Origin: Vulcanimicrobiales bacterium
Lineage (GTDB): Bacteria; Vulcanimicrobiota; Vulcanimicrobiia; Vulcanimicrobiales; Vulcanimicrobiaceae
Length of the DNA stretch: 64,000 bases
Reading direction: 5' to 3'
Assembly: GCA_038231455.1 (NCBI GenBank)
Contig: JBBRLI010000005.1
Location: forward strand, 1-64,000
This document shows positions 42,001 through 48,000 of the stretch, piece by piece. Position 1 is the first letter of the stretch. Each line of letters begins with the position of its first letter. Made by a program: the position numbers.

Positions 42001-45000
42001 AATGCGGCGTCCGAGCGCATCGCTCGGCGGCGCGGGTTCGACGATGACGACGCGCTGCCCGACGCGCGCGAGTTCCGAGACGATCTGCGCGTGAAAGAAC
42101 GGATCGACTTCGTGCAGATAGTGAAACGCGATCGCCGCGTCGTAGGTATTCTCGCGCGCGGGGATCGTCGTCGTGCTGCCGCGCACGGTCTTAACGCCGA
42201 CATCCGCAAGCGACCCCAGGCGATCGACATCCGACTCGATCACGGTGACGTCTGCGCCGATTTGAACCGCGCGGATGAACCACAGCGGATCGATGCTGGC
42301 GCCCGCAAAGAGCACGGATTCGCCTTTGCGAATCGCCATGGCATCCCAGACGAGCTGGTCGATGCGGTGGGATTCGCGTTCGAATTCCTCAGCTAAGATT
42401 GTGCTGTTGTCCATATCTCCTGGAAATCCGGAAAGCTGATCGCGATCGGCGCAGCATCGTCTACGACAATGTTCCCCGTTCCGGCCGCAAGTACCGCCGC
42501 GCTCATGGCGATTCGGTGATCGCCGGCGCTATCAACCGGAGCGGTCGCTTCGTGGAGCTCCACCGGGTTGACGATGAACCCGTCGGGGCGCTCTTCGATG
42601 TCCGCCCCGACCGAGCGCAGCAGCGCGGCCAGGGTCGCGATCCGGTCGGATTCTTTCTGGCGGAGTTCTTCTGCGCCGCTGACCACGCTTGGGGTCGTAG
42701 CGAAGACGGCCGCAACGCCGAACACCGGTAGCTCGTCGATCATGCGCGAGACGAGCGCCCCCGAGATCGAGGTCCCATTCAAAGGAGCGGCGATCACGCG
42801 AACGTCGGCGATCGGTTCGCCGCCGACTTCGACCGCATTCTCATAGGTGATATTCGCACCCATCGCTCGCAGCGCATCGACGATGCCGGTACGCGTCGGG
42901 TTGACGCCGATGCGTTCGACGACGAGGTCGCTGCCCGGCACGATCGAGGCGGCAACGAAGAAGAACGCGGCAGCGGAAATATCGCCCGGCACTTCGATCT
43001 CGGTGCCGATAAGCGGGCGCGGTTCGAAAACGACCGTTTCGCCGTCCCAAATGACCGGGGCTCCAAATCGCTGCAGCATCCGTTCGGTATGATCGCGACT
43101 GAAGTTATCGCCCGTGATTCGCACGGTTCCGGTGGCGTTCAAATGCGCGAGCAAAATCGCGGACTTGACTTGCGCTGAGGGGACCGAGAGCGCGAACGTT
43201 CCGCCTGCGGGATTGCGAACGCCTGCGATCGTTGCCGGAAGGCGGCCGTTTGTCGTTTCGATCTGCGCGCCGATCGTCCGCAGCGGCACGGCGACGCGTT
43301 CCATCGGACGGCGCTGCAGCGACTCATCGCCGGTGAACTTGGCGCGCACGCCGGCGCCCGCGACGAGGCCCATGAGCATGCGCGCCGTCGAGCCGCTATT
43401 GAGGCAGTCGATGACTTGCACCGGGTCGCGCAGGACGCCGCCGGTGACGACGAGCGTCGCGCCGTTGTCGCGCCCGGCCCAGTGCTGAATGCGAATCCCC
43501 ATCGCCGCGAGTGCTTCGCGCGTGGCTCGAACATCGGCGCCGCGATTGGAGTTCGAGATGACCGTCGTTCCGCGGGAAACCGCACCGAACAGAAGCGCGC
43601 GGTGCGAGATTGATTTATCTCCGGGAACGCGGACGCGGCCGCGGAGTGCGCCGCGGCCGAACGTCGTAGCAGTGGTCATCATCGGCACGTTTTACCTTGG
43701 GGAAGGTGGGACTCGAACCCACATGAGCTCACACTCGGTCGCTTTTGAGGCGACTGCGTATACCATTTCGCCACTTCCCCGACTCGGGCAAATTCGCGGA
43801 ACCGACCCGACGCCCTTGTGGGCTTGCGACAATCGCGCGCGCCGCATCGAGCGACTCGGCGGTATCGAGGCGATAGACCATGTGGCGCCGTGCCCCGGCC
43901 GCGAGTCGAAGTTTTACAACTAGGGAACCATCGCCGATCGTCGCTTCGGCTTTTTCGATATCGCCGTGCGGCCACGAGAGCGCGATCACGTCGTGTGTGA
44001 CTTGGTTGTACATGCCGACCGCGTCGCGGTCGAGCGTTTGCGTCGAGGCAGTGAAGTCGCGTACGTCGCGCCCGATTGCCCGCAGATCGTCCGGTGCGCC
44101 AAAGAGGCCAAGCGATGAGATGATGACCGCGCGCTGACTGCTTGCACCCGGATCATCGCCGAACGTCACCTGTTCGTCGACGGAGAATGATGTCGCGCCG
44201 GGTTCGAGTGTTAGCGTTCGTTCGATGTGCTCGCCGTTGGGGAGCACGTCAGGCGGATTGTAGGCGAATCGCACGACGGCGCGCGGACCGGATTCGATCA
44301 CGGCGGCGGCATACTTCCGATTAAAAAAGCCGGCGGGAAAACTATGCGTGTACTTGGCGATCTTGTCCGCCTGGGAGGGCGGCGGTTGAACGAGCACATC
44401 GTCGCGCATTGCGCCGATCGGTGTGAACGCACTTCGCCCGGTGGCAAGCGATTCGAAGACGAATCCGCGCGCGCCGGCGTTCGGTGAGACGACCACGCGA
44501 ACGCGCTCGTTTTCCAACACCACTAGCGGCGCACCATCTTCGAGTAAGTCGGCTTTGAAAGCGATCGCCTCACCGGGTTTTGCCTGCTGTGGGTAGACCA
44601 CCGGGATGCGTACGTCATCGCGAACGATCAGCGTCTGGAGAAGTCTGGACGGTGCCGCTCGATCGATTGTCTTGAGCGATGAGTCGCGTAAGTCGGCTCC
44701 GCTACTCGCGACCATGAGAACTTGCGGCGTTCGAACGTTGAATTCGAGGCGATGGCCGCCGATTTCCAAGCGCACGAAACACTCACCGGGAGAGCCGAAT
44801 TCAACGTTGGATCCGATGCGGCGTGGGTGGCAAGTCGTAAGAATGAGCCGGTCTGCCGCCGAGAATGACTCGCTCAGCGAATGAAGGGGCACGTCCGCGG
44901 CAATAACAAGCGAATCGCGCGCGGGAATGTCGAGCGGACCGACGCGTTCGCGCGTTCCGTCAACGCGACGGAACGCGAGTTCCTTGATCGCGATCGGATT

Positions 45001-48000
45001 GACATCGTAGTTCGGGATATCGACGAACGTGGCACGCGATCGATCGTCATGCAGCACGTTTGCGCCAGCAGCGCCGGTCACGGCACGGTCTTTGAGTTCG
45101 CCAATCTCAGCGATCGCTCCGACAATTTTTACACCGCGCGCTTGCAGCGCAGTAAGTTTGAGCCGCACTTGCGTCAGAACGTGACCCGCGCCGGGGATGC
45201 TCGGAACAACAATGTGCCGGTACCGTTCCAAGGTCGTTTCATCACCGAAACGCAGGTCGATCAAATCGCATACCAAGCCGGCATTCCGGCAGGCGCGCTG
45301 CGCGTCTTGCGTACGCGCGGCGATCGTAAAAATCGCCGAATGGGATAGCGCCCGCTCGTCGAACGCGCTTGTTAGATACGCAATGCCGACGTCGGCATCG
45401 CGGTGCGTCGATGCGAGAAGTCCGCCGTAGACGTCGATCAGGTCGGCAAAGCTGCGCATCGGTGCGTACCGCGCGTGGTGAACCGTGGGGTCGATACCGA
45501 GCGCCGCGTCCCAATCGTAGAGCATATTCGAGAACGGCGCTTCCCAGCCGGCAGGCGCGATCGAATCTTGCGCGGGGAAGTTCACGACTCCGTGCGCGCC
45601 AAATCCGAGGAGCGAATGAAGCGCGAGCGTGGTATTGCTCGGATCGGCCGGTCGCGGACGCGTCGATTCGGGTTGTTGCAGCCATCCTGCCTGAAATTCG
45701 CTCATTGCAACGGCTTGATGCGGCCGTGTCTGCAAGAGTCCGGTCGAAAATTCAAGCGCGCCACGGTCGTGCTCGCCGATACTGAAGGCATCGCTTTGAT
45801 ACCAGTTGCCCATCGCCCAAACGGGTGAACTGGCCGTGACTTTCATCTCGTAGGTATTGATGAAGAGCGGGAGCTGCGGGCCGACGATGCTGCGCACGTC
45901 GCTAGCAAGCGTGTCGAGATACGTGCGCAAATGCGGCGCGGGCCACGTTTGATTGTCGATGTACGCGCCCTGATCGTCATCGAGTGCGACGGCGATGACT
46001 TTGTCGGCGATCGGCACGAACTGTCGCAGGGCCATCCCGATCCAGCGTTCGGAATAGCGTACGTGCGTCGCATTTTGCAACCATGCGGCCGCAGCATCGT
46101 CGCTATTCGCGTTTTGCAACGTCGCCGTCGACGGATAGCGACCCTCGAGAATATCGTGGATTGGCATCCCGTATTCGGGGCGCGCGAGCAGCCACGCCGG
46201 ATAGCCGCCGTTGCGCCATTCGTTGCGGATAACGGGTCCGGGCCGAACGATGATCTTGAAGTTTCGCACTTTGAGGAGCGCAATGAGTTCGCCGAGGTCG
46301 CGCCGTGGGCTCGTGCGGCCATCGAAGTCAAAATCGTTGTCGGAGAGTTCGTGCCAGTTCCACGGCACGTAGAGGTCGATCGTGTTGATCCCGAGTGTGG
46401 CGAGCGCATCGAGCGATGCTGCCCACGATGAGCGCGGAAGTCGGTCGTAAAAGAACGCCGCTCCGTAGACGAAGAATGGCCGCCCGTCGACGAGCAAGGT
46501 CGAGGTGCCTCGTCGTTCGACGTTTGCGCTGTGCGTGAATTCGGCTGCATCCGCGGGCTGATATGCCGTCAGCAAGAACGCGAGCGATGCGATCAATGCG
46601 AATGGCCAACTGCGCATCCGTTTCGCCCGGATGAAGAAGACGACGCCGCCGACGAAAAGCGTCAGGACGCCGAAGGTCATCCCCCACGCCGTCGTTTGCG
46701 TAAAGAGCGCGATCCATCCGCCGAGCGCGACGATCGCCGGAACCGGGAAGAGCCACATGCGGTACGGCGCGGGAGCAGCGGTTCGGCGTAAGAGAACGAG
46801 AGCCGCGATTTGGCCGATTCCTTGGATGAGGAAGATGCCGGCGCTAAGCGCGTTGATGACTTGATCCAAGGACAGAAACGCTGCGGCGGGGAGTGCGATC
46901 AGTCCGAGCGTCACGAGCGAGACATCCGGAAATTTTCCGCTTGGATGCAGGTGCGCGAACGGCCGCAGAAAGTTGCCGTCGAGTGCCGCGGCATACGGAA
47001 TGCGGGCCGAACCTAGCAGCAATCCATATGTTGATGCAAACGCCGTGATCAAGATGAGGACCGTTACGATCGCGGCGGGGACCGCGCCCCACGTGCGTTC
47101 GATAACGAGTGAGGCGACCGACTGCGATTTTGCGACAAGGTCGGCGGGGACGGCGCTGAAGACACCGAGATTGAGCAGCACGTAGAGCGTCGCGACGAGG
47201 GCAACCGAGAGCACGATCGTGCGTGGAATCGTGCGCACGGGGTCGCGGACTTCATCGCCGAGCGCGCAGACTTCGTTGTAGCCCGAATAGTCGTAGAGAA
47301 TATAGATGAGCGCCGAACCCAGTGCGAGCCAACCGACGCTCGTGAACGATTGCGGGACGATCGCGGTGATTGCGACCGTCGGGTGTGTCAAACCCGCAAA
47401 GGCGATGAGCGCGATCGTCACGACGGCGACCACGCTTAGGCCGGATGCGACGCGCGCGATCGTCGGGATCGCGCGGTAGAGCAAGAACAGCGTGAGTGCG
47501 CCGAGTCCGACGGCAAGGGCGCGCTGCGCGACCTGATTCGTGCCGAAGATCGGCGCAAGATAGGCCGCATATTGTGCAAAGCCGATGTAGCCCGATGCTA
47601 GCGTTAGTGGCGCCCAGAAAATGAACTGCCACACGAAGAGAAACGCAAACAGCTTTCCGTAACGCGATGCGCCGAAGGCCTCGCGCAAGTACACGTACGT
47701 CCCCCCGCTGCCGGGAAAGCGCGATGCGAGTTCGGCGTACACAAGCCCATCGCAGATCGCGATGAGCGCGCCAATCACCCACGCGGCGACCGAGACCGAT
47801 CCGTGCAGCGCAACGACGACGAGGGGGATCGTTATGAGCGGCCCCGCGCCAATCATCGTAATGATGTTGACGGCGAGTGCGCTGCGCGCTCCGAGACCGC
47901 GTATCACCCTCGCTCTTTATCGAGGCGAATCGAACGGCCCTGGAAAAAACGGTTGCGATGAACGACCTCTCGCGCCTCCTGAAACTCCAAGGCCGGCTGA

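Follow-up and report, generated by a model that had tools for sequence, protein, structure and literature searches.

The window, a stretch of 64,000 nucleotides at the start of contig JBBRLI010000005.1 of a Vulcanimicrobiales bacterium, carries on its reverse strand a single open reading frame in which an LAT/BasC-like APC permease (residues 1 to ~430) is followed by a Sec-type signal peptide and then by a GlmA/IaSGT-like GH35 enzyme of ~910 aa (Table 1). The initiation codon is GTG, and the N-terminus MIRGLG... of the 1392-aa protein agrees with the homologue consensus MIRGIGLRG. The gene comes from an uncultured soil/sediment bacterium.

Such a frame could arise from an assembly or sequencing error, or from a miscalled frame joining two genes, and in a few relatives (G163, G139, G111) frameshifts or in-frame TGA codons do occur, which is the only support for an artefact. 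However, the frame is open over the junction in 54 of 80 species-representative loci and in 78 of the 201 phylum genomes, that is, in many independent assemblies, single-contig genomes among them. The probability of a joining artefact is therefore negligible, and it was rejected for practical purposes.

Table 1. Features of the fusion gene, with their residues in the product and their positions in the window
Feature	Position	Strand	Basis
Whole ORF, 1392 aa + stop: permease / internal signal peptide / glycosidase	43729..47907	-	
Residues 1-426: APC-superfamily permease, nearest BasC and SLC7 light chains	46630..47907	-	PF13520, PDB sequence search
Residues 427-454: link, predicted signal peptidase I site after A454	46546..46629	-	
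Residues 455-832: mature N-terminus and GH35-type (beta/alpha)8 barrel	45412..46545	-	AF2 model, VIA-align, PF01301
D643-D644-D645: C-terminal end of barrel strand 4 (model residues 177-182)	45973..45981	-	Invariant
E737: predicted nucleophile, where barrel strand 7 ends (model residues 274-278), motif SEFQAGW	45697..45699	-	Invariant
Residues 833-935: alpha/beta domain, corresponding to GlmA domain II	45103..45411	-	AF2 model, structure alignment
Residues 940-1080: beta-sandwich domain, corresponding to GlmA domain III	44668..45090	-	AF2 model, structure alignment
Residues 1085-1365: extra C-terminal galactose-mutarotase-like beta-sandwich domain	43813..44655	-	Domain model pLDDT 86.7, Foldseek
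Residues 1368-1392: basic tail, predicted disordered, non-conserved	43732..43806	-	pLDDT 31-33

The permease and the link

The permease part is matched by the Pfam family AA_permease_2 (PF13520) at residues 9–406 (E 2.3e-36, 126.1 bits, cut-off 27, profile positions 5–387 of 427). In the PDB sequence search, BasC (6f2g) aligned almost from end to end (E 8.3e-27, query 8–430 with chain 7–430 of 444), and xCT, b0,+AT and LAT1 matched at E 1e-23 to 1e-20. The difference from BasC and the L-type transporters lies in the C-terminal WPF motif, in the fused enzyme, and in scores far under the NCBIfam subfamily cut-offs: TIGR00909 gave 132.4 bits against 556.8, and TIGR00911, for L-type amino acid transporters, gave 108.9 bits against 701.8. 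In a Kyte–Doolittle scan (19-residue window, threshold 1.5), only ~10 segments of the permease are clear, so the count of 12 helices and a 13th in the preliminary description stands on the end-to-end alignment with BasC and is not borne out by hydropathy, in which the link itself reaches only 1.30 over 19 residues (1.90 over 15).

By homology, the C-terminus of the permease would lie in the cytoplasm. Four K/R residues lie within 427–432, after the last permease helix, and the motif W434-P-F, with which the permease ends, is also found at the end of four of six unlinked stand-alone permeases. The junction reads R427-A-K-R-M-R-S-W434-P-F-ALIASLAFLLTAY-Q-P-A452-D-A454/A455-E-F457-T-H-S, where the slash marks the predicted cleavage site. 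It is composed of an n-region (R427AKRMRS), the WPF motif, an h-region of 14 aa (F436–Y449) and a c-region (Q-P-A452-D-A454), that is to say, it has the charged n-region, the h-region of 7–15 residues and the small residues at −3 and −1 of a Sec-type signal peptide.

The same features were compared between fused links and the signal peptides of stand-alone glycosidases. The hydrophobic core has a median length of 15 aa in both (75 fused links, IQR 14–17; 41 stand-alone signal peptides, IQR 13–16). Of 75 fused forms, 62 have A-x-A behind the core, where shuffling gives 51.0 ± 3.4 (one shuffle in 500 reached the observed count); of 39 stand-alone forms, 27 have it, where shuffling gives 17.9 ± 2.7. 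This test overstates the signal, because Ala makes up 30% of the tails and the sequences are not independent of one another by descent. With the conserved aromatic residue of the mature N-terminus as reference point, both classes have their Ala maxima at −5 and −3 (fused forms 40 and 44 of 74, stand-alone forms 20 and 25 of 30), the pattern being weaker in the fused links (54–59% Ala) than in the stand-alone signal peptides (67–83%). The residue at −4 varies and often carries a charge, and there is an excess of Pro at −6 and −8. In the clade to which this protein belongs, the predicted cleavage site has D/R/S/R/K at −2, always A at −1, and A or V at −3. The shared core length and A-x-A register support the earlier proposal that the link originated as the signal peptide of the glycosidase.

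The glycosidase part and its active site

The Pfam family Glyco_hydro_35 (PF01301) matches residues 471–578 (E 7.1e-28, 98.6 bits, cut-off 27), covering only positions 2–105 of the 319 in the profile; together with the AA_permease_2 match, it bears out the one-frame permease–GH35 architecture described before. The GlmA equivalog NF041127 (exo_beta_glucsam) stayed below its cut-off (97.8 bits against 1500) and matched residues 470–575 only. The AF2 model of this part (pLDDT 87.9, pTM 0.90) aligned in VIA-align with GH35 chains at Z 28–33.5 (Z ~33 to 7x87, 5gsl and 5gsm), and in Foldseek with GH35 at E 7.6e-23, whereas GH5 chains aligned with the barrel alone (model residues 1–371).

The best structural match is IaSGT, the GH35 beta-1,2-glucosyltransferase of Ignavibacterium album (7vkw, 7x87; Z 33.5, rmsd 3.1 Å over 487 residues), and IaSGT-like proteins of the phylum share the nucleophile motif (A/S)-E-F/M-Q-x-G with the fusion glycosidase. 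The likeness to GlmA extends to its three-domain build of TIM barrel, alpha/beta and beta domains, model residues 1–608 aligning at Z 29.5–33.3 with 19–20% identity (537–542 residues, rmsd 3.2–3.3 Å), and Y53 and E103 (same numbering) are invariant in the fusion family. On the other hand, the sequence match to GlmA is limited to the first ~105 residues, and GlmA is a stand-alone archaeal enzyme, whereas the enzyme here is permease-fused and predicted to be secreted. Moreover, neither GlmA nor IaSGT has the extra mutarotase-like C-terminal domain, for which there was no Pfam match; Foldseek related it to 3mwx, 2htb, 4bze, GH38 C-terminal domains and YidC P1 (E 2e-8 to 1e-4).

In the active site, Y513 and E563 are kept alongside the predicted nucleophile E737, and in the hhalign alignment AVAMSEFQAGW lies against PLFAAEFQCGS of an IaSGT-like GH35 protein, E737 being paired with the Glu of AAEFQCG. 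Neither D643-D644-D645-Q646 nor E737-F738 varies among 63 aligned fused proteins or in a mixed set of 76, in keeping with the invariance already noted for the Asp of DDDQGAY and the Glu of SEFQAGW. The acid/base Glu of GH35, which stands in an N-E or D-E motif, is absent at the end of strand 4; D644-D645 occupies the place of N-E (galactosidases) or D-E (glucosaminidases), D645 standing at the acid/base position. Here hhalign is unreliable, and the register comes from a visual comparison with MMQVCNEIG in two IaSGT-like phylum proteins and from strand 4 of the model; in this register D644 falls at the place of the galactosidase N and of GlmA D178 (roles as given in PMC6566704). The replacement of the acid/base motif by DDD thus holds as first described, but is better read as D-D in place of N-E, the first Asp of the pair lying at the GlmA Asp178 position. 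The spacing from acid/base to nucleophile also differs from GlmA (92 residues, not 168), and the acid/base residue here is Asp, not Glu. Clan GH-A is not known to have an Asp at the acid/base position. Among cluster representatives, DDDQ followed by G, A or P occurs in 56, and a D-D core in 8 more (DDDE/L/M/V, GDDF, EDDV), while in more distant relatives of 1100–1300 aa the motif residues are lost altogether.

Since Y513, E563 and E737 are retained and D644-D645 takes the N-E/D-E place, the glycosidase is probably an active retaining exo-glycosidase. If the missing Glu meant instead that the GH35-like part is a sugar-binding, transglycosylating or scaffolding domain and not a hydrolase, this would accord with the Asp found in all members, with the loss of the motif in the distant relatives, with the nearest structural relative, IaSGT, being a pure transferase according to the excerpt of PMC8861115, and with the inactive glycosidase folds of HAT heavy chains (excerpt of PMC7159911). 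But across 63–76 sequences at 45–85% identity there is no change in the nucleophile Glu, in Y513, in E563 or in the D-D pair, as would be expected of an active site in use, and Asp can take a general acid/base role; a non-hydrolase is distinctly unlikely. The excerpt further gives IaSGT as N175-E176, without signal peptide and cytosolic (PMC8861115), in contrast to the D-D and the predicted export of the fusion enzyme.

The excerpt of PMC6566704 shows Asp178 of GlmA, the residue before the acid/base position, binding the C2 ammonium of GlcN, and by motif register D644 of the fusion enzyme would stand there. The D-D motif, the one support for this idea, may weakly suggest a substrate that is positively charged at C2, for instance a beta-linked amino sugar. 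Against it, nagB was not found above cut-off in the 93.7%-complete genome (33 bits against 236.9), nor was a GH46 chitosanase; the search for GH75 chitosanase likewise gave nothing, but it had no match in any control genome either and so carries no weight. The neighbours of the fusion gene, aroA and a cytoplasmic esterase, do not form a sugar cluster either.

Distribution and descent of the fusion

The representative search returned 166 clusters at E<=1e-30, the same count as obtained before. A permease part is present in 75 of the 120 best homologues. The phylum count given above, for which one match had to run from query residue <=5 over the junction to >=654, includes G000 and the unpublished G177; in ~25 of the 201 genomes, permease and enzyme lie on unlinked genes. 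It was rightly noted that some of the family carry the fusion and that the genes are mostly unlinked in the rest. The permease–signal peptide–GH35 fusion is an old arrangement, common within this bacterial family, and so far undescribed, no description of the arrangement having been found in literature searches.

In the tree of the enzyme part, rooted on six distant non-fused relatives, every basal ingroup lineage is fused, with the stand-alone forms nested; eight changes are needed, at least four of them forced by starred branches. In split genomes, the permease tree and the enzyme tree disagree. These trees are quick searches without bootstrap, and the root of the enzyme tree depends on long outgroup branches; within these limits the fusion looks basal and the stand-alone forms derived, the reverse of the direction assumed earlier. 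Five stand-alone enzymes occupy the same syntenic site, directly adjoining the esterase gene, in genomes that encode a 51–56% identical permease elsewhere. Two neighbouring genes encode the parts in G161 and L070, the break falling precisely between WPF and the signal peptide, with a stop/start overlap of ATGA in G161. On this sequence comparison, the parts have been separated several times in the family, neither being lost. At the same time, the fusion is kept in most lineages through ~50% sequence divergence, which suggests that linkage itself matters.

Cleavage or tethering of the product

Translation would first yield a 12-helix LAT-like APC permease with its C-terminus in the cytoplasm, and then a complete Sec-type signal peptide, which would re-enter the membrane as hairpin partner of helix 12. 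The ~910-residue GlmA-like enzyme would thereby be threaded to the outer face of the cytoplasmic membrane, and this extracytoplasmic location, proposed from the outset, agrees with the predicted topology and with the secreted stand-alone relatives. Signal peptidase I would most probably cut after A452-D-A454, leaving a permease that ends in a short 13th segment and, in the periplasm, a glycosidase that is free or loosely associated. The role of the fusion would then be fixed-ratio co-expression and co-translational export, not a permanent tether, and the permease may, at a guess, import the product of the glycosidase. We favour such a polyprotein over a tethered ectodomain and give it about an even chance, because the link matches stand-alone signal peptides, the stand-alone forms are nested, five of them share one site, and adjacent split genes exist.

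The layout also recalls the animal HAT (SLC3+SLC7), in which a LAT-type permease is likewise combined with a single membrane segment (N-terminus inside) bearing a large ectodomain of glycosidase ancestry; the heavy-chain ectodomain is a TIM barrel plus beta domain in type II orientation (excerpt of PMC7159911). If the link stayed uncut, it would be a 13th helix holding the glycosidase over its own permease, a covalent bacterial counterpart of HAT releasing its product at the mouth of the transporter. The affinity of the permease to BasC and SLC7 light chains, the way the link is oriented (N-terminus inside, ectodomain on its C-terminal side), which is that of type II heavy chains, and the retention of the fusion in most lineages all speak for it. 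Moreover, 44 of 63 fused homologues have a link with a 19-residue hydropathy of >=1.6, so these links could pass as membrane anchors, and only 3–7 residues separate A-x-A from the first conserved strand. However, tethering gives no reason for the kept A-x-A register, the Pro at −6 and −8 or the 15-residue core, the low 19-residue hydropathy of the link in this protein is against it, and the two parts have repeatedly become unlinked. In addition, HAT heavy chains are GH13-like and inactive (excerpt of PMC7159911), whereas the domain here is GH35-like with its catalytic residues kept; HAT consists of two disulfide-joined polypeptides, here there is one, and the link looks cleavable. The resemblance is thus one of layout only and does not imply common descent of the ectodomains. 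Tethering keeps an appreciable chance, though a lesser one, and release by signal peptidase is at least as likely, because the cleavable features are kept and the parts were split repeatedly. The preliminary description, in which the link was no more than a 13th helix that keeps the enzyme beside its transporter, is for the same reasons not upheld.

It is fairly unlikely that the uncut link makes an active covalent HAT analogue, in which a cationic sugar or glycosylated amine would be cut from a polymer and passed into the permease; if true, the fusion would be a hydrolase–transporter machine and an APC-family route for amino-sugar uptake.

A similar build is known from the FbcH polyprotein (cytochrome b-c1) of Bradyrhizobium japonicum, in which one ORF encodes a polytopic membrane protein, then an internal signal peptide and then an exported domain, the product being cut into two proteins after translocation. 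Both share this order of parts, but those of FbcH are respiratory-complex subunits that stay together in one complex, whereas here a transporter and a hydrolase are joined and cleavage is predicted only. Four signal peptidase I genes (sigpep_I_bact matches above cut-off) are present in the genome.

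Permease half and signal peptide of the link

The permease and the enzyme are encoded in one frame, and the positions, domain boundaries, conservation of the motifs and numbers of clusters put forward in a preliminary description, which had proposed an APC permease joined through a retained signal peptide to a GH35-like glycosidase, were reproduced with Pfam, homologue alignments and a search of representatives. The N-terminus of the ORF agrees with the consensus of aligned homologues (n = 62), and NCBIfam gave only sub-threshold matches on the fused protein. In a search of solved structures, permease residues 8–430 matched the bacterial L-type transporter BasC end to end (6f2g, chain positions 7–430 of 444; E 8.3e-27), and the next matches were the SLC7 light chains xCT, b0,+AT and LAT1. 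Taken from the BasC alignment, the predicted topology is 12 helices with both ends inside; hydropathy alone resolves about ten segments. The last helix is followed by R427-A-K-R-M-R-S and then by W434-P-F. Four of six unlinked stand-alone permeases from related genomes end at most 12 residues past WPF, and this motif belongs to the permease.

Features of the fused gene and its surroundings in the window
Feature	Residues of fused protein	Positions	Strand	Remarks
Fused ORF		43729-47907	-	single open frame, 1392 codons, GTG start
AA_permease_2	9-406		-	Pfam, 126 bits
Glyco_hydro_35	471-578		-	Pfam; first third of profile only
Extra C-terminal domain	1085-1365	43813-44655	-	modelled alone, pLDDT 86.7
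aroA				downstream of fused gene; 342.8 bits, cut-off 287.25
PF00756 esterase		47955-49022	+	upstream, divergent; without signal peptide
482-aa ORF		40966-42414	-	without Pfam or NCBIfam match
MscL ORF		49567-50187	-
DJ-1/PfpI ORF		50055-50669

The link itself is a signal peptide. After WPF come 14 apolar residues (F436–Y449), then Q-P-A452-D-A454, and then A-E-F457-T-H-S, that is, the conserved start of the enzyme; in the stand-alone forms (enzyme genes without the permease part), an ordinary signal peptide comes first and is followed by the same mature N-terminus. The hydrophobic core has a median length of 15 residues in both classes, namely in the fused forms (n = 75, IQR 14–17) and in the stand-alone forms (n = 41, including one cut fused form; IQR 13–16). 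Past the core, 62 of 75 fused forms and 27 of 39 stand-alone forms have A-x-A, against 51.0 ± 3.4 and 17.9 ± 2.7, respectively, in shuffles that preserve composition, and in each class one of 500 shuffles was as high, figures which are not probabilities since the rows are related. For a register check that is not circular, the conserved aromatic residue of the mature N-terminus was used as the anchor: Ala reaches its maxima at −5 and −3 (40 and 44 of 74 fused forms, 20 and 25 of 30 stand-alone forms), the residue at −4 varies and often carries a charge, and Pro enrichment is seen at −6 and −8. Therefore, by core length, A-x-A and Ala positions, the link is a full signal peptide, somewhat relaxed, with its register as in real ones.

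Distribution and history of the fusion

At E ≤ 1e-30, a match was found in 121 of 201 phylum genomes and in 111 of the 113 genomes of the window's own family. One match runs across the junction in 78 of the 201, including the genome of the window and the unpublished G177, and two of these 78 have one in-frame TGA. In three further genomes, a cut or frameshifted version reaches across the junction (the frameshift of genome G163 lies inside the enzyme), and about 25 genomes contain the enzyme alone; in the approximately 20 enzyme-alone genomes listed, a permease of 51–56% identity has its gene at a different place, in most cases on a separate contig or at a distance of hundreds of kilobases. Of the 120 best enzyme homologues, 75 have the permease and 40 are stand-alone forms that start with an N-terminus of their own; the rest are cut, namely one fused form, and four at the N-terminus. 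The best 80 species-representative loci comprise 54 fused in frame, 22 stand-alone, three adjacent out of frame and one with too short a flank, and their record titles name mostly Vulcanimicrobiota or Eremiobacteraeota and in a few cases other phyla; most of the titles denote MAGs.

In genome G161 (locus L019, G161:C5:158500-163500, about nt 1700–1720), the permease ends in ...WWPFATPSVA, and the TGA stop shares bases with the ATG start of the enzyme gene (ATGA), a stop/start overlap that is the usual sign of translational coupling; the related locus L070 is split at the same point (about nt 2400–2500). In both, the permease stop lies 6–11 residues past WPF, and the enzyme gene, with a signal peptide of its own, begins in a different frame. 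Each of the five stand-alone enzymes examined occupies the site of the fused gene, directly next to the esterase.

A quick maximum likelihood tree of the enzyme part (126 rows, 468 columns, rooted on six distant non-fused relatives) has only fused forms on its basal ingroup branches and needs eight changes of state, at least four of which are forced by the starred branches. In a tree of fewer genomes, the unlinked permeases group into two clades, and their enzymes are scattered among fused relatives. This pattern fits a history in which the permease part was lost repeatedly in genomes with a free copy: the free permease may have originated one or two times and then spread, after which the permease part of the fused copy would have been deleted several times. 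Both trees are short searches, and the root of the enzyme tree lies on long branches.

Fate of the link

Cleavage of the link is the reading we favour, at roughly an even chance, because the cleavage register has been retained over long divergence while the remaining link varies freely, and because separation of the parts has been tolerated repeatedly in the family. The cut would fall after A454, and the enzyme would be exported. The nearest precedent for such a route is FbcH, the cytochrome b-c1 polyprotein; only isolated precedents are known in which a single gene yields both a polytopic transporter and a secreted enzyme via an internal signal peptide. If the link is cut, the family would be a widespread bacterial case of this kind, with a bearing on the co-translational targeting of large periplasmic enzymes.

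The serious rival, to which we give appreciably less than an even chance, is that the link stays uncut as a tether. In 44 of 63 fused forms, the hydropathy of the link is at least 1.6 over 19 residues, so that many such links could double as anchors; the window's own link, however, reaches only 1.30 over 19 residues, and hydropathy was rejected as proof of a 13th helix for this protein. If uncut, the protein would be a bacterial analogue of the SLC3/SLC7 layout with the parts covalently joined; in that layout, according to PMC7159911, the heavy chains are of type II and their TIM-barrel ectodomains are inactive. Complex prediction of permease 1–454 with enzyme 455–935 (alignment A2) gave 0.00 in two runs without controls and counts neither way between cleavage and tether. 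The natural series of fused genes, adjacent genes with overlapping stop/start and unlinked genes provides built-in experimental controls.

The full-text literature search returned no description of a permease–glycosidase fusion and only a passing mention of GH35 in this phylum. The present case is an APC permease genetically linked to a glycosidase in Eremiobacterota (Vulcanimicrobiota), for which most of what is known comes from metagenome-assembled genomes of the phylum. As a separate observation, two signal peptidase I genes adjoin each other in the window's genome (G000:C10:52659-53779, minus strand), which has four matches above the cut-off in total.

Enzyme fold, active site and gene neighbourhood

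The enzyme half has a GlmA-like fold with a conserved active site. The AlphaFold2 model (residues 461–1392, built from 76 sequences) has a mean pLDDT of 87.9 and a pTM of 0.90, and its top Foldseek matches are archaeal glucosaminidases (8oug, 5gsm, 5gsl, 6jow) and IaSGT, the beta-1,2-glucosyltransferase of Ignavibacterium album. VIA-align gave Z 33.5 for IaSGT (487 residues, rmsd 3.1 Å) and Z 33.3 and 32.9 for GlmA, an archaeal exo-beta-D-glucosaminidase (537–542 residues, 19–20% identity), over model residues 1–608; that is to say, the first ~610 model residues reproduce the entire three-domain GlmA build. The PDB profile search (alignment A1) matched GH35 chains over the first ~105 residues only, and the GlmA equivalog, searched as an alignment partner, was not found in the window's genome or in 14 control genomes. 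The extra C-terminal domain is a galactose-mutarotase-like beta-sandwich by fold search; its best protein atlas value, 0.88, is below the trust level, and 11% of one cluster has DUF4380. The domain also has invariant residues grouped in a cluster of its own (G, R-D-D, S, D, I, T, G, Y, D, W; alignment A3), suggesting either another site for sugar binding or a part in the active site. The final 25 residues of the protein are predicted to be disordered.

According to PMC6566704, GlmA contacts GlcN through Tyr53, Glu103, Glu179 (acid/base) and Glu347 (nucleophile), and Asp178 holds the C2 ammonium group, hence D-E instead of the N-E of galactosidases; for IaSGT, PMC8861115 gives N175-E176 and E343. 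In the present family, Y513 and E563 (Y53 and E103 by enzyme numbering) are invariant, as is E737 of SEFQAGW, which sits at the end of model strand 7 and which hhalign matched to the Glu of AAEFQCG from one of the phylum's IaSGT-like proteins. The segment D643-D644-D645-Q-G-A-Y lies at the end of strand 4: ungapped against MMQVCNEIG, D644 falls on N/D178 and D645 on the acid/base Glu, a register which is our own reading; hhalign against the IaSGT-like protein aligned the nucleophile but not, reliably, the acid/base stretch. Among 50%-identity cluster representatives, the D-D core is kept where the flanks vary (DDDQ, GDDF, EDDV). Whether or not the link is cut, the family is a GH35-like clade with Asp-Asp replacing Asn/Asp-Glu. 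In BLAST alignments, distant relatives of 1100–1300 aa (P0184–P0223) share the N-terminal barrel segment without Y53/E103, the D-D pair or the nucleophile Glu, which could mean either that these glycosidase-like proteins are inactive or that the alignments are faulty. The enzyme would be active with a retaining mechanism, using D645 and E737 on a cationic sugar, and the product would be taken up by the permease.

The D-D motif is the sole support for an amino-sugar substrate. In the window's 93.7%-complete genome, no nagB match exceeded the cut-off and a search for GH46 found none; that for GH75 had no match anywhere and is thus uninformative on the substrate. The neighbours of the fused gene are housekeeping genes. 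The gene order conserved across 20 loci is PLP enzyme, esterase, then divergently permease–enzyme, aroA, an unknown gene, a cyclase-like gene, ECF sigma and M20 peptidase; since it is conserved family-wide, it says little about function. The esterase, with weak matches to feruloyl and enterochelin esterase models, is found at this site in 18 of the 20 related loci and directly adjoins the enzyme gene even without the permease part, and the 482-aa ORF is kept in the same neighbourhood in 9 of 20 (54–60% identity). Farther along the window, the MscL ORF carries ~69 residues ahead of its MscL domain and, at the C-terminus, a short match of zinc-ribbon-like type (UPF0547); its start is probably later, given the overlap with the DJ-1/PfpI ORF as listed.
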